Shown here: positions 47,517-59,050 of the stretch, piece by piece
How positions within the stretch are numbered: position 1 is the first letter of the stretch
Layout of the letters: each line of letters opens with the position of its first letter
From: Chthonomonadales bacterium
GTDB taxonomy: Bacteria > Armatimonadota > Chthonomonadetes > Chthonomonadales > CAJBBX01
DNA: 64,000 nt
Assembly (NCBI GenBank): GCA_037443035.1
Contig: JBBIPC010000006.1
Span: forward strand, 32,001 to 96,000
Direction of reading: 5' to 3'
Translations under genes and position numbers: made by a program
Notes under the pieces: generated by a model
What the model saw: the letters and a program-made list of their open reading frames with translations, nothing else
What the model was told of the DNA's origin: nothing
Database searches by the model: none

Positions 47517-48770
47517 ATGTCCCACGTGAAGCTCACCACCATCGTGACCACGGCAGTGTTCCTGGCGGCTGCCGGAACCGTCGCCAATGGCTGGCAGTTG
47601 TATTTCATGGCAGGCATCGTTCTGAGCTTGCCACTCGCCTCCGCAGCGATAGCGCGCCTTTCCCTCATGAACTTGGTCGTCGAGCGTGTGCTGCCTCCCC
47701 ATGCCTGGGTCGGCGAGGACATCCCCATCACGCTGCGCATACGAGCCCGCGACTCCTGGCCCCGTATCGGCATGCAGGTCCGAGAGACCGTAGGGGACTA
47801 CCTGGAGAACGTAGACGAACACCCCAGTGTCTTCGATATCCCGCCACGCGCTACGGCCGAGGCGCAGTACCACGTCAAGGCGGCGAAGCGGGGCGTGTAC
47901 AACCTGGAAGCGCTGGAAATCGGTGCGCACGATCCTCTGGGTCTATTCGTCCTGGAGTTGTCGCAGCCGGCATACCAGCAGTTGGAGGTTCTGCCGGTTC
48001 CGGAGCCGTTGCCGTATGTTGAGGCTATGGGGTTCGACCAGCAACAATACCACGACGTGCCGTACGCGGTTGTCAGGGGAAGCGGCATGGACCCGCACGG
48101 CGTAAGACAATACATGCCAGGAGATCCTCTGCGCCGCATGCACTGGAAGACCGTTGCGCGCACCGGCGAGTTCCACGTCATCGAGTTCGAGGAACCACGC
48201 GCTGTCTCTGTGACCATCGTGCTCGACTGTTTCGAGGGCGGGAACCATGGCACGGGACCGACAAGCTCGTTCGAACTTCTCGTCCGCACGGCCGCGTCGC
48301 TCGCCGACATGGCGATACGTCAGGGGAGCGAGGTATGTCTGATCTGCACCGATCCAACCGGAGTTGCTGAGGAACCTGGCAGAGGCCAGCAACACTTGCT
48401 GGCCATGCTGTCCTCCCTGGCTCGTGTCCAACCGGCTGCGCGTACGCGCATCGGCTCGAGCCTCGAGCACGTTCGCCGCCAGGTCATGCCTGGAAGCACC
48501 GTCTTCGTTCTGACGGGTGATACAGACGAGGAACTTGTCGAAGCAGTACACTTGCTTCGGGCTCAGGGCGCGTTCCCTGCGGTGTTCTGGGCCGATCCCA
48601 GTGCGTTCAGCGGAGGATCTCTACTCTCGGACGCGCTGGCGCGGCTGGGATGGCATGGCACTGCTGACGCGAACTTCAAGGACTCCCTCCTGGCCACTCA
48701 GGTCGCCATGTTCACTGTGGAGCTTTCTGAACGCGGAACGCTACTCGTGGAGCCTCCTGCCGATGCCTGA
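47517..48770 (+). CDS. DUF58 domain protein
   Basis: N-terminal TMs, RGVY...DPLGLF, VRQYMPGDPLRRMHWKTVAR. Confidence 0.92.
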   Translation: MSHVKLTTIVTTAVFLAAAGTVANGWQLYFMAGIVLSLPLASAAIARLSLMNLVVERVLPPHAWVGEDIPITLRIRARDSWPRIGMQVRETVGDYLENVDEHPSVFDIPPRATAEAQYHVKAAKRGVYNLEALEIGAHDPLGLFVLELSQPAYQQLEVLPVPEPLPYVEAMGFDQQQYHDVPYAVVRGSGMDPHGVRQYMPGDPLRRMHWKTVARTGEFHVIEFEEPRAVSVTIVLDCFEGGNHGTGPTSSFELLVRTAASLADMAIRQGSEVCLICTDPTGVAEEPGRGQQHLLAMLSSLARVQPAARTRIGSSLEHVRRQVMPGSTVFVLTGDTDEELVEAVHLLRAQGAFPAVFWADPSAFSGGSLLSDALARLGWHGTADANFKDSLLATQVAMFTVELSERGTLLVEPPADA

Positions 48771-50991
48771 AGCGTCCTATCGTATCACGCCGCCTACTCA
48801 GGACGACGATCGCGAGCCTGCTCCGAGCGGCATTCACTACCTATCGGCCTATGCCATCACAGTGTGCGGCTTCTACACGGCGTTCGTTGGTCTCGGCATC
48901 GAGGAGCCCCTCTTCCTGATCGTGGTCCTGGCCTTATCAACGGTCGGCTTCCTTGTTAGTTACACGACACGCAACCTCCCTTCATCCGGATGGTCCATAG
49001 CCGCACTTGTAGGTAGCGTCATGGGCGCGCTCATGCTGCGGGCCGTTTCTGGATCGTCGGCCGAGGCACTATTCCCCGCGGCGACAGAAGGCGCCGTTCA
49101 TCGTAGCCTTGGAGCGTTCCTCTGTTGGCTGCTCGTCCTGCTGAGCTATGCACAGCTCAGTAGCGGTTGGTTGCTGTTCATGTGTGTGCCGACTGCTGCC
49201 ATCATGGGCATCGCCGGCACTACATCATCTGAACCCATCATCCTCTGGTCCTGGGCGTTCTTCATTCTGGTGAGCACGTTCATGCTCGTCCACGATAGCC
49301 ATGCGCGTCTCTTGGCACGACGTCACCTCCGACGGTCCCCACCTAGTCTGGAGATGCGGCTCGTGGTCCAGATTTACATAGCAGCGGCGTGTAGCATCGG
49401 TGCTATGGTGACGGGTCGCATTCTGTCCCAGCCCATGGACATCCTCGGTTCGGCCATCGGACCGCTCGGCGGTGCGGTCAGTGCAAGACCGACGCCGACC
49501 GCCAGTGAGACCCCGACGGCCGTTGGCGTGACAGAATCGACGGCGCTCCCTGTCGGGGGGCAGAGTGACAGCCGTGACGATACGGTGATCCTCCGAATCC
49601 GTGCGGCGCACGGGGCAAACTGGCGAGGCGCAACTTACGACGAGTACAATGGCCGAGGCTGGAATTCGAGTCTTAGCGGTTGGCCTCTGGAGTTCGCAGA
49701 CAGATCAACGTCCACCAGAATGCTGCTCGACGGTCGTCTCTGGCCTGGCAGGGATGTCGTTATTCCCGAGGGCGAGTTGAACGCCGTACCGGCGCGATCC
49801 CACACTCTCCAGCAGTATGTGCGGGTCGAGTCGACCGCCAGGTTGGACACACTCTACGCAGCGGCAGAAGCCAGATCTTTCCGACTACGCGCCGGAGATC
49901 TGCACTACGCGTGGTACACGGGTGGCCGATGCACGGTGGATGAGAGCGGCTCAGTACGCCTTCCGAACGAAATCAGCAACACAGGCTACGTGGCCGTCTC
50001 CGAAGTGGCCGATTGGACAGAGGACTCGCTGCGGAAGAGCAGGGCTGTGCTCTCCATCGAGGAAGCAGACACGTACACGTCGCTCAACGTGAGAGAGGAA
50101 GTCCGGCAGCGACTGCGAGAGGTCGCCATCTCTGTGACGAAGGATCAGACCTCCGACTATGACCGAATCGTCGCCCTGAAGCGGTATCTGGGAAAACAGT
50201 GCGTCTACAATGCACTTGCGACATCGTCGGCGGACGAGACCGAGGATGCAGTCATTCAGTTTCTCTTCCACACGCGGTCAGGCACGTGCCAGCATTTCGC
50301 TACGTCGCTGGCGGTCCTGTGCAGAACGATAGGCATTCCGTCGCGCGTAGCATCCGGTTTCGCTCCTGGTACGCCTAACGCTGCTGGCACAGAGTTCATC
50401 GTCCGCGCAAGGGACAAGCACCTGTGGACCGAGGTCTGGTTCGCCGGGGTGGGTTGGGTGCCGTTCGAGGCCACCGAGGACGCGCTGGATGTTACCCCTC
50501 AGTCAGCCTTGGACCGAATCCGCGCGAGCCAGGGCTGGATTCGGAACGTATTGCGCCGGAACGTTCTCTCAGCGTTGCTCGGCACTGGCGCCCTGCTGCT
50601 AGTGCTCTATGTTGTCTTGCGCGAAGTTCTCAACCGACGAACCAACCGTGGACGAATGGCGCCTGGTGTCAGCATCCACGGTGCGTACGTACTGATGGCC
50701 TATGCGAGCATGAACAAGAGATTACGTCGTTGGAAGCTGGAGCGCAGACTGCACGAGACTCCGGAGGAACATGCCGCACGCCTGCGAAGGCACTTGGGGT
50801 CAGCTGGCATACAATGCCCCGAGCTGGCCGAGCTCACGACTCTGGTCGAACGAGCGAGGTATGCTGGGGACGCGATGTGCATGGCGGATGCGAAACGTGC
50901 AAGGCGACTCGCCAGCATGATCGCGGAGAAAGCACGGGACGCCGCGGCAATGCCTGTCCGGCGGCTGAAAGTGGAGGTAGCCGGATCTTGA
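48763..50991 (+). CDS. membrane transglutaminase-like protein (TgpA-type)
   Basis: Multi-TM N-terminus, WRGATYDEYNG, GTCQHFA, HLWTEVW...GWVPFEAT, ETPEE C-terminal domain. Confidence 0.9.
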   Translation: MPEASYRITPPTQDDDREPAPSGIHYLSAYAITVCGFYTAFVGLGIEEPLFLIVVLALSTVGFLVSYTTRNLPSSGWSIAALVGSVMGALMLRAVSGSSAEALFPAATEGAVHRSLGAFLCWLLVLLSYAQLSSGWLLFMCVPTAAIMGIAGTTSSEPIILWSWAFFILVSTFMLVHDSHARLLARRHLRRSPPSLEMRLVVQIYIAAACSIGAMVTGRILSQPMDILGSAIGPLGGAVSARPTPTASETPTAVGVTESTALPVGGQSDSRDDTVILRIRAAHGANWRGATYDEYNGRGWNSSLSGWPLEFADRSTSTRMLLDGRLWPGRDVVIPEGELNAVPARSHTLQQYVRVESTARLDTLYAAAEARSFRLRAGDLHYAWYTGGRCTVDESGSVRLPNEISNTGYVAVSEVADWTEDSLRKSRAVLSIEEADTYTSLNVREEVRQRLREVAISVTKDQTSDYDRIVALKRYLGKQCVYNALATSSADETEDAVIQFLFHTRSGTCQHFATSLAVLCRTIGIPSRVASGFAPGTPNAAGTEFIVRARDKHLWTEVWFAGVGWVPFEATEDALDVTPQSALDRIRASQGWIRNVLRRNVLSALLGTGALLLVLYVVLREVLNRRTNRGRMAPGVSIHGAYVLMAYASMNKRLRRWKLERRLHETPEEHAARLRRHLGSAGIQCPELAELTTLVERARYAGDAMCMADAKRARRLASMIAEKARDAAAMPVRRLKVEVAGS

Positions 50992-52139
50992 GCGAGTTCG
51001 TGGTCACTCCAGCTAGCGGCGACGCGTGGCTCGCCGTACGGCAGCGTGCGTACCTCCTATGCGGCGACGATGATCAGAGTATTCTGGACGCGGCCCGATC
51101 TATACAGGAACGCTTCCTCGAGGAAGATGCCGCTGACTTCGACTTGGACGACCTTGACGCTGAGACAACTCCCATCGAAGACATCATTGGCAGCATTCAA
51201 CGAGAGCCTCTGCTTGGTGATGTTCGGATGGTCGTCGTGCGCGCGGCCGGAATCTTGCGACGCCGCGACAAGGCCCGCAGCGCAGATCTGCTGGCGGATG
51301 CTATTCGCCAATTGGGTCCTCGGTCGTGCTTGGTATTGATCAAGAGGCCGACCGGAGAAGTAACTCGGAAGGGCGCGGCGATCCTGACCGCCAAGCTCGA
51401 TTCCGCAGTTCGTGACGTCGGGGCGATTGTGCGTTGTCCGGCGCTCGACCAAGAGGGTATGGTGCGATGGATAGAGCAGTATGTGGCTCAGTGCGGCAAG
51501 AGCATTACGAAGGAGGCAGCGCATCGGCTCGTGGCCCGGGGCAGTCCTGATCGGATCGCTGTCGGGCACGACTTGGACAGACTGATTGCCTATATCGGCA
51601 GCAGAAAGCGCATCGAGGCGAGCGACGTGCATGCCTTGGTCGCGCAGGATCCGGAAGATGTCATGTTCCGACTCGTGGATGCGATCTCGTCTCGGCGGAC
51701 GGGAGAAGCCCTCATGCTTCTTCGGGCAGCCAGCCGGTATGAGACGCGGCCCCATGCACTGGCGGGACGGTTCCTGGCTCTCGTCGAACGGCAGCTCCGT
51801 CTCCTGTATCAGGCGCGTGAGCTGCGATCGCTTGGTGTCGGCATGAGCGAGCTGAGAACCCTCCCCCAAGAGATTGCCGCTGACCTCCCCAACGATGCGA
51901 GCATCGTGTCCATGTCGTGGAGAGCATCGTCGTACGCACGAGATGCGGCGCAGTGGACTCGTGCCGAGCTGGTTCAGGCTTTCGGGCTGCTAGTGCAGTG
52001 CGATGCCGCCAACAAGGGGGATGAGGCAGGACACGAAAACCCGCTTGCGAACCTCGAGCAGCTCGTCATCCTCTTGTGCGATCGCTCGCTCGCGATGGGG
52101 CGAACAACAACAGACCTGCCCCTCCGCGGGCAGGTCTGA
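50988..52139 (+). CDS. holA: DNA polymerase III delta subunit
   Basis: YLLCGDD, PLLGDVRMVVV, DLDRLIAY, FRLVDAI. TTG start overlaps the upstream TGA after GGAGG; adjacent to rpsT. Confidence 0.85.
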   Translation: MSEFVVTPASGDAWLAVRQRAYLLCGDDDQSILDAARSIQERFLEEDAADFDLDDLDAETTPIEDIIGSIQREPLLGDVRMVVVRAAGILRRRDKARSADLLADAIRQLGPRSCLVLIKRPTGEVTRKGAAILTAKLDSAVRDVGAIVRCPALDQEGMVRWIEQYVAQCGKSITKEAAHRLVARGSPDRIAVGHDLDRLIAYIGSRKRIEASDVHALVAQDPEDVMFRLVDAISSRRTGEALMLLRAASRYETRPHALAGRFLALVERQLRLLYQARELRSLGVGMSELRTLPQEIAADLPNDASIVSMSWRASSYARDAAQWTRAELVQAFGLLVQCDAANKGDEAGHENPLANLEQLVILLCDRSLAMGRTTTDLPLRGQV

Positions 52140-52203: not shown

Positions 52204-52479
52204 CTAGGGAGCGTCCTGGAGGGCCCTGTGGGCACGACGCATGAGCCGTGATTTCCGCCGGGCGGCAGCGTTGCGATGGATGATCCCACGCTCAAGCGCC
52301 TTGTCAATGACGCTAACCGCCTGCCGGACGGCAGCCTGCACCTGTTCCGCTTCGTGGGTCTCCATGACCGCCTTCGCCTTCTTGATGTAGGTCTTGATGG
52401 CGGACTTGGTGGCGATATTCCGCAGCCGATTCTGGCGAGATTTCTTGACGTCCTTCTTTACAGACTTGATGTTGGGCAC
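52204..52479 (-). CDS. rpsT: 30S ribosomal protein S20
   Basis: PNIKS, KSAIKTYIKK, IDKA..GIIHRNAAARRKSRL; AGGAGG RBS. Confidence 0.97.
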   Translation of the reverse strand: MPNIKSVKKDVKKSRQNRLRNIATKSAIKTYIKKAKAVMETHEAEQVQAAVRQAVSVIDKALERGIIHRNAAARRKSRLMRRAHRALQDAP

Positions 52480-52507
52480 TGACAATACACCTCCTGCAAA
52501 CCGACGC

Positions 52508-52542: not shown

Positions 52543-53028
52543 CTACAGCTCCAGTTTGTCGAATCTCCCCGCCGTCGGATTCAGCGCCTCCCGCAGGGCA
52601 TTGTACGCTTCGTCCACGCGTGCCCGTATCTCTGTGACGATCTGCTGTTCCTCGGAACCCTCGGCACCGCCCAAGGACGAGCAGCGCTCGACCAGTTGCT
52701 GGTAGGCGAACTCCACCTCGGCAAGGCTCGCGCCGGGCTTCAGACCCAGAATGCGGTAAGACCGCGTAAGCGTCACATCAGTGGCGGTCTCCGCTTCCAG
52801 TTGAGACGTGTTCTGCACCGGTGTCGGCGGCGGGGTGGCCGAAGTCGCCGACGCAGGTGGCGCCGAAGCTGTACCCAGATGCTCCGCCAGCTCCTGTTCG
52901 GCAGCCGCCCGTGACTGGTACTCCAGCAAGCGGTCTTCCAGCATCTCGGCGTCAATGCGATCGAGGCGCTCCTTGATAGCACGCAGTTGAGAGAGTGCTA
53001 TGTTCCGGAGGCGACTGGACCAGCTCAC
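52543..53028 (-). CDS. J-domain-like protein lacking HPD
   Basis: YRILGLKPGASLAEVEFAYQQLV...RVDEAYNAL; HPD position reads CSS. GTGA overlap with the upstream gene. Confidence 0.78.
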   Translation of the reverse strand: MSWSSRLRNIALSQLRAIKERLDRIDAEMLEDRLLEYQSRAAAEQELAEHLGTASAPPASATSATPPPTPVQNTSQLEAETATDVTLTRSYRILGLKPGASLAEVEFAYQQLVERCSSLGGAEGSEEQQIVTEIRARVDEAYNALREALNPTAGRFDKLEL

Positions 53029-53876
53029 AGTGAACCTCCCGCCCCCGTCGTAACGGAGGCAGTCGACTCGGGAGCCAATGCTTCGGTAACGCTGGAGTCG
53101 AGCAGCTCGATCTCCGATCCCAGGCTGTCGAGCTCGCTTACCAATCCCTCACTGAACGAAGCCACGTTACCGATATCCACGGTCTTGAGGCGGATCACCT
53201 TCGCCTTCCAACTGGCGAAGGTCGCTTCGACGTTCTCGAGCTGGCTGTCGATGCGCCCCGATGCCTGCGCGATGGCACGATAGGTACCCAGCTCCGCTTC
53301 GCGGGCCTTCAAAGCCTGTTCGTACTGCTTTCTGGACACGGGGTCCGTCGTCGCAGCGATCCGTTGTCGCAGGTTCTCTGCATAGGCTTCCAAGGCCCGA
53401 TCGTCCACATGGTGCAAGTATCGCATGAGCTGCTGCTTGCGGGTCGCCAAACGAATGGCTTGCTGGACCAGCGTCGGAAGGCGCGACGCAATCCGCTCTA
53501 GTTCACCCCGAGCATACGGTTGGACGTCGTCAGCTCTCGCCTCCTGAGCTATTTCCTTCTGCAGTTGAATGATATATCGCAGGCGCTGACGCGTCTCGAA
53601 ATCCATGGCGGATAGACGTTCCTCGATCTCAGTGTCGGACAGTGCTTGCGCCGATTCCTCCTGATCCCGCAAGATGCGGCGGAGGTACCCTTCATCGTGA
53701 AGCCTTCGGTTCAGGAGGAATGCCTCGAGACCAACGGCACAGGCGATGGGTATCCAGCTCCACTGGAAGGCTGCCGACGCTACTACCGCTGCGACCCAGA
53801 TGGCCGCAGAAAGAGGGGAGAAGAGGACCCTCCGCGCAACATAGGCAAGCCGTCTTCCGGTCGAGACACTCGTCAT
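53025..53876 (-). CDS. membrane-anchored coiled-coil protein
   Basis: Two N-terminal hydrophobic segments followed by long heptad-rich helices; 16 nt downstream of pspA. Confidence 0.8.
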   Translation of the reverse strand: MTSVSTGRRLAYVARRVLFSPLSAAIWVAAVVASAAFQWSWIPIACAVGLEAFLLNRRLHDEGYLRRILRDQEESAQALSDTEIEERLSAMDFETRQRLRYIIQLQKEIAQEARADDVQPYARGELERIASRLPTLVQQAIRLATRKQQLMRYLHHVDDRALEAYAENLRQRIAATTDPVSRKQYEQALKAREAELGTYRAIAQASGRIDSQLENVEATFASWKAKVIRLKTVDIGNVASFSEGLVSELDSLGSEIELLDSSVTEALAPESTASVTTGAGGSL

Positions 53877-53892
53877 GCTCTTGATGTGAGCA

Positions 53893-54657
53893 CTATTGGC
53901 TCTGTAGCTTCTGTTCGAGCTCCCGGAGTTGCCGATCTACATCGTCCTCATCTGCCTGACCAGCCGCCTGTACTGGCTGTTGGGCTGACTGCGGGGCCAT
54001 TCCCAGCTTGGCCTCGAGTTCCGCCAGCATGCGGTCCGATTCGGCGTCGGCCTGCTGGTCCTCGAGCGCAGCAATCCGGTTCGCCATACTGGTGCTTGCG
54101 ACCTCGGCTCTGGCGGCTGCTTCCGATTGCATAGCGCGGATCTTCTCTTCTGCGCGGTCCCAGCTCTGCGACACATCGTCCATCTGCATGCCGTCCAACG
54201 CCTTGTTGATGGCGATCTGAATCTCGGCCTGTTTCATGTTGGCCTTGAGAGCTAGAGCCTCGGCCATCTTCTGGCGGACACGTTCCTCGTCTCGCTGAAT
54301 GGCGATCTTCACCGCTTGAGCGGTTTCTTCCGCCTGCTTGAGGGACACGCGCATCTGCTCGAGCGTGCGATCGTGAAGGGCCTTTTCTCGAAGGAGCGTG
54401 CGCGCAAGCTCACGGTTGCCCTGTTGTAGCGCCAGTGCGGCCTTGGCTTCCAGATTGCGAGAAGCCCGTTCCTCCTGCGCAACAAGACCCTGGAGATTGT
54501 TCTTCTGGGTGATGGCCTGAACCGCACGCTCGCGGTTCTTCACCTGCGTCTCTTTCATCTCCCGAATAGCTTCATCAATGATGACCTGGGGGTCCTCGAG
54601 TTCGTCGAGTTTCCCCATGATGAGCGCCCGGAGGTAACGGAAGAAGCGTCGTAACAT
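53893..54657 (-). CDS. pspA: PspA/IM30 (Vipp1-like) protein
   Basis: LDELEDPQVII, KAALALQQGNRELAR, WDRAEEKI..EAAA.AE; GAGG RBS before ATG 54657. Confidence 0.92.
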   Translation of the reverse strand: MLRRFFRYLRALIMGKLDELEDPQVIIDEAIREMKETQVKNRERAVQAITQKNNLQGLVAQEERASRNLEAKAALALQQGNRELARTLLREKALHDRTLEQMRVSLKQAEETAQAVKIAIQRDEERVRQKMAEALALKANMKQAEIQIAINKALDGMQMDDVSQSWDRAEEKIRAMQSEAAARAEVASTSMANRIAALEDQQADAESDRMLAELEAKLGMAPQSAQQPVQAAGQADEDDVDRQLRELEQKLQSQ

Positions 54658-54727
54658 GATCGTCCTCTGATTGTTTCCGGCCGGCGCAGAGCCTGCCGCA
54701 CGCGAATGTGCCGGAACAGTATCGACT

Positions 54728-54756
54728 ATTATCGCACGAACCTGGCTGGATGTCAA
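54728..54756 (-). promoter_or_regulatory. sigma70 promoter of the pspA operon
   Basis: Minus strand TTGACA-N17-GATAAT with extended -10 TG. Confidence 0.7.
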
Positions 54757-54762
54757 CAACGC

Positions 54763-55644
54763 TTACGGCCGTGGTAGCAGGCCGACTTCGCGGAGTCTGG
54801 CGAAGAGCACGCGTTGCTGCTGTGCGCTCGGCATGACGAGAGGAGGCCGTACAGAGATCCTGGCTATACCGCGCGCCTCGAGGACAGCCTTGGCCGCGCC
54901 CACGATGGGGCAGGAGTTCATGATGCCAATGGCGGCGTCGAGGCGCGCCTGGGACGCCGCTGGGTCTACGCCCTCCCGCACCGCCTTGGCCACTGCGACG
55001 ATGAGCTCGGGAAAGGCGTTGGCGGTTCCGGATATCACACCCGCTGCTCCAGCGCGGAGCATGTCGGCCAGGTAGAGGTCGTTGCCTACGAAGACCTTGA
55101 GGCTCGGATAGCGGTCTAACAGGGTCATTCCGGGGCCACGTTCGGGTGAGCTCTCCTTCACTCCGGCGAGATGCGGCATGCCTATAAGAAGTTTCAGGAT
55201 ACGAGGAGTAATGGGCACCGCCGAGAACTGAGGGATGCTGTAGAGGACCACCGGTACGGTGGACGATCGCACGACTGCACGGTAATACGCAGCTACTCCT
55301 TGCGGCGCAACGTTCTTGAAGTAGAAGGGTGGCAGTACGAGGACCGCTGCGACTGCGCATTTGCACGCATGACGTGTGAGTGCCAGTGCGTCGGGAAGGG
55401 CGCTCGCCCCCGTGGCGGCAATAACCTCCAGGCCATGAGCATGTTCCAGCACAGCCTCGAGAAGACGCTTCCGTTCTGCGACGGACAGAGATATCCCTTC
55501 GCCATTCGTCCCACCTACGACGAGACCATCCACGCCGGCCGCTCGCTGAAAATCCACGAGCGCCGGCACATCCCGAAGGCGTAACGATCCATCCCTGCCG
55601 AACGGCGTTACCAATGCTGTGTAAACGCCTCTCAGTGCTGCCAC
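54763..55644 (-). CDS. DapA/NanA family aldolase
   Basis: TALVTPF, GGTNGEG, LPPFYF, LYSIP, GVKES. GTG start overlaps the upstream TAG after AGGAG. Confidence 0.88.
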   Translation of the reverse strand: MAALRGVYTALVTPFGRDGSLRLRDVPALVDFQRAAGVDGLVVGGTNGEGISLSVAERKRLLEAVLEHAHGLEVIAATGASALPDALALTRHACKCAVAAVLVLPPFYFKNVAPQGVAAYYRAVVRSSTVPVVLYSIPQFSAVPITPRILKLLIGMPHLAGVKESSPERGPGMTLLDRYPSLKVFVGNDLYLADMLRAGAAGVISGTANAFPELIVAVAKAVREGVDPAASQARLDAAIGIMNSCPIVGAAKAVLEARGIARISVRPPLVMPSAQQQRVLFARLREVGLLPRP

Positions 55645-58079
55645 TACCTTGCTCCTGTCTCCGTCGCAGTGCGCTTCATGAGCCATACTTCGCTGACCTG
55701 GGCGCCACGTCCTGTAAGTCGGTTCCAGCGCAGCACGAGAGTGCCGTCGGCTGTCGCCTGACGCGGGATGGGCCATTCTTTGATCGTCGGCGGAACTGTG
55801 GTCGGTTCCGGCCCGTGGACACGATACTTGTCGTCAGCCCACAGTTCGAGCGTGGGCCTGTACCTGCCCGAATAGGTAGCTCGGATCACGTACTGGGCTG
55901 TCGGATCCAACCCGGTGTACTTCAGCAGGATCGGCGCCCCGTAGAGCGACTCCGCGTAGTGGACCCACGACTGACGGTAAGCAGGTTGGGGTATGGCGAA
56001 ATCCGTTCTCGTGCTTTCCACATAGCCGGGATCCTGACGCCACGTCTTGAGGCGCAGGAGGTGCGGCTGCTTCGTCGGGTTGCCTAGGTCATCGTAGAAT
56101 CCGCCTGCACCGGGGTCCTCCCAGTGAACCACTGTACGAATAGCGTCGGCGACCGCACTCGGGCGACCAGTGTCCAGTGCGCGTTGTAAGGTGGCCCGTA
56201 TCCAATCCTGGTTGCAGAGTGGTACATCCAGGAAGTCCAGTACTGCCCCACGTTCACTTCCGGACGCACCCCAGCGTGGCACGGAGAGTTGGAGTCCGAT
56301 GCTCTCGAAAAGCTGCTGCCCCAACTCCAGCAGGCGGTTTCGGATCTCCGGTGCCGGTGTGCTCCGCTGCGCGGCATCGAGCCGCTCGAGGGCTTTTCGC
56401 GCCAAAGCGATTGGATCCGAGGATCCCGCCTCCAAGTCGCGAAGGAGGGCGGCCTCGTCGGCGGTCTCCGCCTCCAGCTTGACCTGGACATAACGGTCAT
56501 AGTAAGCACGCAGCAGCGCCATCTGGAAGCGCCAGTTGCTTCGGCTCAGTCTTGGGTGAGCACTCTCCAGCTTCCGCCAGAGGTCGAATGCTTGCCGAAT
56601 CGTCTTGCTTTGTAACACCGGTGCCAGCCAGTTCGCCTCGAGCAAGTAGATGCCGCGGTATGCCTCCTCCGCAGCCCTTTCGCCGAAGAAGTAGCGGACG
56701 TACTCCCGGACGACTTCGCGATCCGAGCGTCGGGGATCCCAGAGCATGGCGGACCAGATGACTTTGTTCAGATCGTCGGTCACTCCGTCGGAGTAGGTGA
56801 TGGCACCCACGGTCAGAGGCTGGTAGAGGCGCGCGATATGCGCATGATCGGATGGGCGATAGATGACAGGCTCCCTGCCCAGCGTCGCTGCGAAGGCCTG
56901 ATCCCAATCGCGGACTGGGTATTGACAACGCACGCAGTGGCAGATATCCGGATACTGGCGCACGGGATACTGCCGAGGCGCCCGGGCTCTCATGGAGGCG
57001 ATGGTCTCCTCAGCCCAGGGACCATGGACGATACCAGCGAGCCATCGTGGGCGTTGTGTCCTGAGATACTGGTAGAAGTAGCGGTTGTTATCCTCGAGAA
57101 ATCCCTGGTTCGAGAGCCAGAGTCCGGCCCTGGGGTGGTAGCGATGGAGAATGGCCGCGATTTCCTCGGCCAGTGGGAGCATGGTTCGGACCCAGGGCTT
57201 GCACAGGTCGCAGTTGCAGCCTCCTGGGTCGCCGCCTGGTATGAGGACGCCATTCAGATGCCGAATGCGGCGGAACAGCTCGCGACGCTGATCCAGAATG
57301 TAACGTCTCCCGTCCCGACGAGAGGGGCAGGGGACCGCGCCGGGCGTAAGCCCGTCGCCGCTAAGGTTGGCCGGCACTTTGTCGGCGAGGGGATACCACA
57401 ACCATACGTCGAGACCGTACGAAGCCATGAGATCGGCCAGTGCGCACGTGAATCGGAGGTTGGCTTCGTGCTCATAGGCGCTGTCGAACGGTATGAGCTC
57501 GATGGCGTTCGTGCCCCAGATGATCAGGTCGCGAATGTACTGCTCGTACTCCTTCAGGCCCCAGCGATCGTAGCTATTGGCGGTCGGTCGCCAGCCGAGC
57601 TGATGGCCGCGCATGGGCTTGGCGGGCGCTGTAACGATGTCCATGGGGGGCACCATTACGGGGCCGGTTCCCCAACGCAGCTCCCGGAGGACGCGTCCAG
57701 CCGCGAACATGCAGCCTCGCTGATCTCTGCCGATGGCAGTGATTGCCGTTCGCCCCTGTTGCTGCTCGATGCGCAGCCTGTATCCGTCTGCTACAAGGGA
57801 GTTGCCAACGAACTGCGGCGCTACCTTGGGGGGCATGCGAGTCAGCGATCCTAGGAGCACATACGACCCTGATGCGGGTACGGTCTGCTGGATGGTCCAC
57901 GTACCGCCCCGTTTGCCTGCTTCTTCCACGAGCATACGTGCGGCCAGACGCTCCACGGCTGTGGCATGACGCGACACGACGACCGTCATGCGCTGAGCCG
58001 CAAGCATCTTGGGCGATGGGAAGGCGGACAGCGGTGTAAGAGCCATGGTAAGGAGAAGGAACCATTGCCACGTTTTCAT
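55644..58079 (-). CDS. secreted glycoside-hydrolase-like protein (GH67/GH20-type N-terminal domain)
   Basis: Signal peptide; DGYRLRI...IGRDQRGCMFAAGRVLR..., P..PMRG barrel start; beta-rich C-terminal domain. Confidence 0.7.
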   Translation of the reverse strand: MKTWQWFLLLTMALTPLSAFPSPKMLAAQRMTVVVSRHATAVERLAARMLVEEAGKRGGTWTIQQTVPASGSYVLLGSLTRMPPKVAPQFVGNSLVADGYRLRIEQQQGRTAITAIGRDQRGCMFAAGRVLRELRWGTGPVMVPPMDIVTAPAKPMRGHQLGWRPTANSYDRWGLKEYEQYIRDLIIWGTNAIELIPFDSAYEHEANLRFTCALADLMASYGLDVWLWYPLADKVPANLSGDGLTPGAVPCPSRRDGRRYILDQRRELFRRIRHLNGVLIPGGDPGGCNCDLCKPWVRTMLPLAEEIAAILHRYHPRAGLWLSNQGFLEDNNRYFYQYLRTQRPRWLAGIVHGPWAEETIASMRARAPRQYPVRQYPDICHCVRCQYPVRDWDQAFAATLGREPVIYRPSDHAHIARLYQPLTVGAITYSDGVTDDLNKVIWSAMLWDPRRSDREVVREYVRYFFGERAAEEAYRGIYLLEANWLAPVLQSKTIRQAFDLWRKLESAHPRLSRSNWRFQMALLRAYYDRYVQVKLEAETADEAALLRDLEAGSSDPIALARKALERLDAAQRSTPAPEIRNRLLELGQQLFESIGLQLSVPRWGASGSERGAVLDFLDVPLCNQDWIRATLQRALDTGRPSAVADAIRTVVHWEDPGAGGFYDDLGNPTKQPHLLRLKTWRQDPGYVESTRTDFAIPQPAYRQSWVHYAESLYGAPILLKYTGLDPTAQYVIRATYSGRYRPTLELWADDKYRVHGPEPTTVPPTIKEWPIPRQATADGTLVLRWNRLTGRGAQVSEVWLMKRTATETGAR

Positions 58080-58192
58080 AGCCATTCTCCAGCTGTCGGC
58101 AGCCGATCGAGGGCCGACAGACACAATGCACCCTCCCCTCCGACATGGCCCTGGAGGAGAGGGTGCAGTTCACATGGGCAGGACTGCAGCGG

Positions 58193-58972
58193 TTAGATCT
58201 TTAGCTCGTTGCCCGGCATCCACTTGGCATGGCCGTCGCGATAAGATGTGTTGCGACCGTAGCTGTTCTGGTACTGCATGGAGCCAGTATGCACGGGGTG
58301 TTCCTCCAACCAGGCGAGGAGGTTCACCGGCGACATGTGGTAGAGGACACCGTCAATGGTGCGGTCGTACTCGACATCCCAGAACGACGGCGGAGGTGCA
58401 TCGTCACGGTTGCAGCTTGGGTCGCCGCCGTTGCGCTTGTAGAAGCGGTAGCTACCGTAGAAGTGGTCGTACTTCATCTGATCGCGCCATCGAATGCCGT
58501 CCGGAGGGGGTGCATCCTGAATGCCAGGGTCAATGGTCACGGCGCTCCCGTAGCCGGTGTCCGGCGGAGTCGGGTAGATCCAGGTGTGCACCTTCTTGAA
58601 CCGGTCGGAAGGGCAGTAGTACATCTCCTTGTTCTTGGTGTACGGGTTGAAGACGATGGCCAGCGCCTCGTTGTAGTTGTGGAGGCCCATGGCGCTAGGA
58701 GGAACGACGATCGTCTGCGCGTTGTCGGCGTAGACGGTGGTGTTGGGTCGGCCCCTGAACCAGAAGTTCATCTGGTCATAGTCCTGGGCGTACATCATGG
58801 CGGCCAGTGCCAGCTGCTTCAGATTGCTGATGCAGGAGATCTGGCGTGCCTTCTCGCGTGCTCGCGCGAACACAGGGAACAGGATCGCGGCGAGAATCGC
58901 GATGATGGCGATGACGACAAGCAGCTCGATGAGCGTGAACGCACGCTTGTCTCTGCTCACTCCACGACGCAT
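58193..58972 (-). CDS. prepilin-type N-terminal / DUF1559 protein
   Basis: [43 protein letters not shown]...YAQDYD; CPSD; C-terminal H...N..Y.DGHAK. Confidence 0.93.
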
Positions 58973-59050
58973 AGTCTCCTCCCTCCTTCTCACTTAGGGC
59001 GGACCGCTGCGGTCCGACTGTATGGCTAACGCATGAGCGTTCTTCCTAGG

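Follow-up and report, generated by a model that had tools for sequence, protein, structure and literature searches.

Within a 64,000-nucleotide stretch of a contig from a Chthonomonadales bacterium (hereafter the window), we analysed a locus on the minus strand at 52543-54756, in which pspA, a gene for a protein with two transmembrane (TM) helices and a gene for a protein resembling J-domain proteins (the J-like gene) form three consecutive, co-directional open reading frames (ORFs). The pspA gene (53893..54657) encodes a 254-aa protein of the PspA/IM30 family with Vipp1-type architecture; its start was set at the ATG at 54657 (MLRRFF...) by alignment with 39 orthologues, the start of the longer ORF being a TTG at 54759. 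After a spacing of 16 nt follows the TM gene (53025..53876), encoding a 283-aa protein with two predicted N-terminal TM helices and then a helical bundle. The TGA stop of this gene and the GTG start of the J-like gene (52543..53028), which encodes a 161-aa J-domain protein without the His-Pro-Asp (HPD) tripeptide, share the letters GTGA at 53025-53028, a predicted translational coupling of the two genes. A predicted sigma-70-like promoter, TTGACA-17-(TG)GATAAT, lies at 54728..54756 on the same strand, about 70 nt 5' of the pspA ATG, and matches the consensus at 11 of 12 positions; in the 2.9-kb region, three promoter-like sites were observed against 0.8 expected from shuffled sequences. Both the three-gene arrangement with its GTGA coupling and the sigma70 promoter before pspA had been named in an earlier reading of the DNA letters (hereafter the original prediction), and both were found here.

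The PspA protein was matched by the Pfam family PspA_IM30 (PF04012) over residues 2-217 with 113.2 bits (cut-off 33.9; E 1.8e-32), and it is the only PspA match in the genome. Among solved structures, it comes closest to cyanobacterial Vipp1 proteins (6zvr, E 8e-12; 7o3w, E 2e-11), against 5e-5 for E. coli PspA (4whe). The extra linker and terminal helix that had been proposed to follow LAELEAKLG are present at residues 218-254 (53896..54006, minus strand; terminal sequence DVDRQLRELEQKL) and resemble the Vipp1 'Vc' region. This tail aligns, up to query residue 251, with the C-terminal tails of 6zvr and 7o3w, and it is carried by all 40 PspA orthologues, with a divergent motif in one (L047), indicating that the label of a Vipp1-type architecture is correct. 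Vc-like tails are also described in PspA of other prokaryotes, possibly with independent origins (PMC12798727). The absence of pspB and pspC, which had been noted for the window, extends to the whole genome (100% complete), where no PspB or PspC match was found. No convincing sigma-54 activator was found in the genome either, Sigma54_activat giving only weak AAA+ matches of 21.8-33.2 bits. By these searches, the genome does not contain an E. coli-type Psp system consisting of PspF, PspB and PspC.

The relationship of the third protein to J domains is clearer in the family than in the single sequence. Against Pfam DnaJ (PF00226), the window protein scored 15.9 bits, under the cut-off of 27.8, whereas 35 of 40 J-like orthologues matched this family at E <= 0.05, the best at 1.2e-10. 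A profile built from the 40 sequences aligned at positions 87-149 with J domains of solved structure (best E 3.4e-6), and the 57 listed matches of this profile to solved structures are essentially all J proteins. The structure was modelled by AlphaFold2 (AF2) with the 40-sequence alignment, giving a mean predicted local distance difference test (pLDDT) score of 75 and a layout in which a long helix (residues 3-52) is joined through a disordered linker (53-75) to four helices within residues 76-158 (76-93, 102-119, 126-149 and 151-158; 52555..52803, minus strand), with pLDDT 77-93 over residues 81-150. When this model was compared with known structures by Foldseek, the best-ranked chains were mostly J domains (probability 0.9-1.0, E 0.07-0.5), with a TM-score of up to 0.72 on the target; no match reached E 0.001, which is unsurprising when a domain of about 70 residues sits inside a longer model. 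In nearly all members, the family C-terminus reads R-F-x-x-L-E-[LFI], which forms the fourth helix in the AF2 model. Judged by its family profile, the third protein is a genuine J-domain homologue, and it is predicted to have the four-helix J fold that had been anticipated, on which the profile, AF2 and Foldseek concur. In most J-like orthologues the linker contains the motif R-[ST]-P-E-E-I-A-x-G, which is lost in the window protein and its closest relatives; nor do these proteins retain the Pro of the HPD position.

Elsewhere in the genome, two full dnaK genes (G000:C1:246199-248300 and C12:87889-89920) each adjoin dnaJ, with a dnaJ-type J domain within about 200 nt 3' of each, and there is a third canonical J protein. 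The J-like protein is thus additional to the canonical dnaK-dnaJ pairs and the three canonical J domains of this genome. Nor is it a member of the NCBIfam 'ActJ' model, which we take to be AtcJ of Shewanella, since it scored 17 bits (E 0.0064) against a cut-off of 150. It is nevertheless like AtcJ in being a small protein with a single J domain, which in Shewanella is dedicated to one partner system. AtcJ, a short protein whose C-terminal extension binds its partner, is described as having a functional J domain and working together with DnaK.

The HPD tripeptide is required for a J domain to trigger the ATPase of Hsp70. In the window protein, the codons aligned to it (52672-52680, minus strand) read S117-S118-L119. 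The absence of HPD, claimed in the original prediction, was therefore borne out, while the residues given there as CSS were one residue off, the aligned ones being SSL. The neighbourhood survey with HPD status that had been suggested as a check found His at this position in none of the 40 orthologues; Pro was present in 31/40 and Asp in 7/40, and the commonest triplets were D-P-S, D-P-A and A-P-D. In the genus of the window and in g17 the Pro is gone too, leaving SSL, DAI, LSV, RSV or RAA. When 1.84 billion representative proteins were searched with the J-like profile, 312 were found at E <= 1e-10, and among the best 150 of these, His was present in six (three HPD, three HPE), the position was gapped in seven, and the remaining 137 were without His. 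The six His-bearing relatives (P0215, P0236, P0237, P0243, P0244 and P0246) have the same architecture, and a Pfam scan of them returned DnaJ only, with no PspA_IM30 match at the N-terminus. By this alignment, the window protein lacks the His-Pro-Asp signature of a functional J-domain co-chaperone.

To follow the locus within the order, 41 Chthonomonadales genomes were sampled, including that of the window. J-like and PspA matches were each found in 40/41 genomes, and strong TM matches (E <= 1e-57) in 25, which comprise all genomes of families f1 (the window's own) and f2 except G019; the latter genome (92% complete) is without all three genes. In all 39 loci of relatives, pspA, the TM gene if present and the J-like gene occur in the same order on one strand. 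Of the 39 loci, 24 include the TM gene, and in family f3 the J-like gene lies directly 3' of pspA with no TM gene, the gap being about 970 nt in one locus. As these genomes are kin and not independent, the locus counts show persistence and are not statistics. A locus scan with a single protein gave five loci, which carried the labels Chthonomonadales, Chthonomonadaceae or Chthonomonas throughout, with a metagenome-assembled genome of Chthonomonas calidirosea among the relatives.

Across the phylum, 301 genomes were sampled, in which a raw tally of 196/301 at E <= 1e-5 includes cross-matches to ordinary DnaJ. Full-length J-like matches were found in at least eight further families (f4, f8, f11, f14, f16, f23, f29 and f35). 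Among 20 sampled loci from outside the order, pspA lies at most 4 kb from the J-like gene in ten (f14, f16, f23 and f29), a TM-like gene lies directly 5' of the J-like gene with no pspA nearby in five (f11 and f35), and neither gene is nearby in the other five (f4, f8 and one of f35). The PspA-TM-J arrangement recurs in f23. The J-like gene directly follows pspA with no TM gene in f14 and f29, although one f14 locus has an unrelated 279-aa ORF between the two, and in f16 a 293-aa signal-peptide-like protein replaces the 2-TM protein (L052:4552-5433, minus strand; L065:3183-4064, plus strand). By eye, this 293-aa protein ends in ...RASF in the manner of outer-membrane proteins. The TM-like genes of f11 and f35 (L056, L060, L061, L066 and L069) match the TM profile over part of their length (E 1e-5 to 1e-12), and all five genomes with such TM-J pairs encode an orthologous PspA with the tail elsewhere. 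In f8, two genomes contain a second J-like match of lower strength, with pspA about 1.1 kb away from it. Of five genomes of the phylum without a J-like match, three have no PspA match and two have only a weak partial one. These data show pspA and the J-like gene to be the conserved core and the TM gene to be an insert specific to certain lineages, found at 24/39 loci in the order and also in f23. Joint conservation of the genes, on which the original prediction depended, holds for pspA and the J-like gene (39/39 loci in the order, and further families) and extends to the TM gene at 24/39 loci.

A quick maximum-likelihood tree of the J-like proteins separated a sister subfamily (f4, f8 and metagenome sequences) from the PspA/TM-linked group, and the latter follows taxonomy, as vertical descent would predict. 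Sister proteins end in RFERLEF, and their HPD position drifts among RPE, KPE, QPE and HPE; in 12 metagenome loci it was of the RPE/KPE/QPE type in seven and HPE in one, the others differing. By eye, the neighbours of this subfamily (L077-L088, L058 and L067) are either mutL on the upstream side or, downstream, genes for pyruvate dehydrogenase E1/E2. We considered whether the HPD/HPE-bearing members of this group might represent a PspA-linked ancestor and rejected the idea, as the 12 metagenome loci are without pspA and only one has HPE.

The TM protein has two predicted TM helices at about residues 17-59 (53700-53828), followed by a helical-bundle domain of about 220 aa. This domain is predicted to be cytoplasmic, the flanking basic residues suggesting an N-in, C-in topology. 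The AF2 model (pLDDT 83) is all-helical, with two hydrophobic N-terminal helices followed by long helices packed in a bundle. The protein had no match in Pfam or NCBIfam, Foldseek with its model returned nothing at E <= 0.001, and its profile found nothing below E 0.6 among the sequences of the PDB. Nor was any profile likeness found between the TM and PspA families (hhalign probability 0.2). Of 101 homologues, eight are labelled with an organism, all of them Armatimonadetes/Chthonomonadales, and the named homologues are mostly annotated as 'hypothetical protein' by their sources. In the ESM Atlas, a cluster of Rv2743c (PspM) lies near the TM protein with a score of 0.92, which is a lead in feature space only. 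PspM likewise has two TM helices, and its gene comes directly after pspA; we examined it as a candidate identity. The identity was rejected, as a search of the whole genome with the family PF25587 (Rv2743c) at E <= 1 left the TM gene unmatched, and PspM is therefore treated as a positional analogue only. PF25587 was also absent among the 25 families listed for 30 scanned TM members (of 84 matched), where a match to a lone member could go unlisted.

The N-terminal long helix of the J-like protein spans residues 3-52 (52873..53022, minus strand; AF2 pLDDT 77-87), and its start is predicted to be cationic and amphipathic. Within this helix, R6, I10, A11, D26 and E28 are nearly invariant. The mean hydrophobic moment is 0.50 for both the J-like and the PspA first helices, and that of the window's own J-like helix is unremarkable against shuffled sequences (p ~0.15). 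The starts of the HPD-bearing relatives P0244 and P0246, which have the same helix-linker-J layout, appear closer to that of Vipp1 by eye, which may be a lead.

Downstream of the operon, rpsT (ribosomal protein S20; 52204..52485, minus strand; Pfam Ribosomal_S20p, E 3.5e-25) lies 57 nt 3' of the J-like gene and is possibly the final gene of the pspA transcript, if the genes are co-transcribed. It occupies this place in 19 of 59 fetched loci, all 19 from f1. A terminator-like hairpin with 11 pairs, eight of them G-C, follows rpsT (52111..52138, minus strand); such hairpins were not enriched, three being observed against 2.1 expected in shuffles. Upstream of the pspA operon is a DHDPS-family gene. 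The region is flanked by an ORF for an 824-aa multi-pass membrane protein (48517-50991, plus strand) and by one for an 826-aa protein (55644-58124, minus strand) with only a weak DUF4838 match (E 0.002). A further ORF (58193-58993, minus strand) has a prepilin-type N-terminus, and a similar start was seen in the metagenome locus L085.

One of the closest known parallels comes from chloroplasts, where a tailed Vipp1-type ESCRT-III protein is likewise tied to a J fold, namely in VIPP1/HSP70B-CDJ2-CGE1 of Chlamydomonas and with cpHsc70-1 in Arabidopsis. To our knowledge, chloroplast Hsp70 with CDJ2 is the only known remodeller of PspA/Vipp1. CDJ2 has an HPD motif and an N-terminal J domain. In contrast to CDJ2, a working J protein, the window protein is HPD-less and has its J domain at the C-terminus, behind a long helix. 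A further difference from the VIPP1/HSP70B-CDJ2 system is that the tie here is genomic only and the host is a non-photosynthetic bacterium. Two published accounts describe chloroplast Hsp70 as binding the VIPP1 tail and disassembling the oligomers, with CDJ2 as the J protein of VIPP1 (PMC12798727, PMC13051332). The window protein also resembles Pam16/Tim16 in having a J-type fold that would itself be unable to activate Hsp70, a fold that serves in Pam16 as a partner or regulator. Pam16/Tim16, of the mitochondrial import motor, is HPD-less as well. Unlike Pam16, which pairs with the J protein Pam18 at the translocon, the J-like protein has no paired J protein in this locus. Pam16, a J-type protein, is reported to form a heterodimer with Pam18 through the J-type domains of both.

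Small membrane partners of PspA/VIPP1 are likewise known in PspB/PspC of E. coli, LiaI of Bacillus, PspM/Rv2743c of Mycobacterium and VIA1 of thylakoids. Of these, VIA1 is reported to bind through winged-helix domains, whereas the model of the TM protein is an all-helical bundle.

We propose, with about even confidence, that the conserved operon encodes two small partners that anchor PspA assemblies at the inner membrane and regulate them, probably with no stimulation of the DnaK ATPase. The J-like protein would act on PspA assemblies at the membrane, as suggested by the phylum-wide adjacency and co-occurrence of the two genes, by the PspA tail, and by analogy with CDJ2/HSP70B and cpHsc70-1. 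It would be unable to switch on DnaK, because HPD is required for that step. Its amphipathic N-terminal helix may be placed at the membrane or in the polymer, and the TM protein, where present, may dock the assemblies at the membrane, as a positional analogue of PspM, PspB/C or LiaI. The output would be control over how PspA polymers form or come apart under envelope stress. Complex prediction for PspA with the J-like protein, made without control runs, gave scores of 0.24 and 0.22, the mark being 0.32, and so speaks neither for nor against binding. A more specific form of this proposal, which we hold to be rather improbable, is that the HPD-less J fold might be an Hsp70-independent adaptor gripping the PspA tail, comparable to MIT domains and ESCRT-III tails, while the N-terminal helix and the 2-TM protein as receptor would place the complex on the membrane; the three parts would then form an ATPase-free module ancestral to the phylum.

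Several observations weigh against the proposal that the two partners anchor or regulate PspA. Most J-like members keep D/A-P-x at the HPD position, with a nearly invariant R-F after it, so that a non-canonical contact with DnaK is conceivable. In f11 and f35, pspA is distant from the TM-J pair in all five genomes checked, showing that the linkage is not obligatory, and the sister J-like subfamily (f4, f8 and the 12 metagenome loci) is solitary, with pspA in 0/12 of the metagenome loci. The presence of rpsT in the cluster puts a housekeeping gene beside a stress operon. For the TM protein, the wide VIA-align comparison gave a best Z of 12.3, followed by designed bundles, BAR, IncA and the like, which is in the non-specific range for helical models. 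The N-terminus of the J-like protein had originally been read as a PspA-type amphipathic first helix, and this part was not confirmed, the profile tests being negative or weak, although an amphipathic cationic helix is predicted. The J-like and PspA families had an hhalign probability of 0.2, and a 28-column profile ranked the genome's own PspA N-terminus only 798th among 89,973 candidate N-termini. Ungapped BLOSUM62 comparison of the 40 cognate J-like/PspA pairs gave a mean of 11.3, compared with -1.0 +/- 6.3 in shuffles and 3.5 +/- 5.9 for other PspA helices; the offsets were inconsistent, and 45% of the cognate pairs were above the 95th percentile.

The main rival, which we regard as somewhat unlikely, is that the J-like protein works via Hsp70, as a non-canonical recruiter of DnaK or as a Pam16-like or decoy regulator of a genuine DnaJ, so that PspA remodelling would still be driven by DnaK. 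This would fit the conserved J-domain core, in which Pro is kept in 31/40 orthologues and followed by R-F, the few HPD- or HPE-bearing relatives of the same architecture, and the two dnaK-dnaJ pairs of the genome; it has precedents in the action of chloroplast Hsp70 on the VIPP1 tail and in the pairing of Pam16 with Pam18 via J-type domains. However, His is found in none of the 40 orthologues and is lacking in 137 of the best 150 representatives, and the locus contains neither a dnaK nor a dnaJ gene. Moreover, the Pro is also lost in the genus of the window and in g17, which argues against selection on a DnaK-activating loop.

Two further explanations would leave the J-like protein without any action on PspA. 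The TM and J-like proteins might form a membrane complex of their own, adjacency to pspA reflecting shared stress regulation only. The TM-like/J pairs without a neighbouring pspA at 5/20 sampled loci (f11 and f35) point in this direction, as does the GTGA coupling of the TM and J-like genes against the 16-nt gap after pspA. In addition, the J-like genes of these pairs group with those of f23, which has the PspA-TM-J order, and of f16 in the quick tree (support of 85 in the Shimodaira-Hasegawa-like approximate likelihood ratio test, SH-aLRT, with the inner branching unresolved), suggesting that the pair persisted after its separation from pspA. We nonetheless consider such an independent complex quite doubtful, since families f3, f14 and f29 have the J-like gene directly after pspA and no TM gene, this type of PspA is missing from all five genomes checked that have no J-like gene, and all five TM-J genomes keep an orthologous tailed PspA. 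The other explanation is a chance or syntenic neighbourhood, in which the J-like protein would be a general small stress or housekeeping protein travelling with rpsT and pspA. While rpsT does lie 3' of the J-like gene in 19 loci, and synteny by descent among kin means that counts within the order overstate independence, the rpsT linkage is confined to f1, and the adjacency of pspA and the J-like gene spans at least seven families while the inserted gene varies (the TM gene, the signal-peptide protein of f16 and the 279-aa ORF of f14); a neighbourhood with no functional tie is very unlikely to account for the pairing.

The pairing of PspA with an HPD-less J-like protein is likely a real, conserved and undescribed PspA accessory module, whose mechanism we infer from sequence and models. 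Its novelty, as originally claimed, agrees with the literature: full-text searches returned no paper on a bacterial PspA/J-like pairing, and the two phylogenomic papers searched on the PSP system (PSP, for phage shock protein) have no mention of DnaJ, J-domain or Hsp40 in the main text, nor of DnaJ in the supplements examined (others may exist). New in this analysis are the recognition of the TM gene as an insert and the mapping of where it occurs, the TM-J pairs that stand apart from pspA, the solitary subfamily, and the joint absence of PspA and the J-like protein.

At stake is how PspA/Vipp1 polymers are assembled, placed and disassembled in bacteria that have neither PspF/B/C nor a Vps4-like ATPase. 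The loss of HPD raises the question of whether the J fold is used as an Hsp70 switch, as a brake or as a plain binding module. The genus Chthonomonas has cultured members, and since the three proteins are small, experimental tests are practical. Finally, the phylum-wide pairing suggests that a connection between ESCRT-III and J proteins may exist in free-living, non-photosynthetic bacteria.

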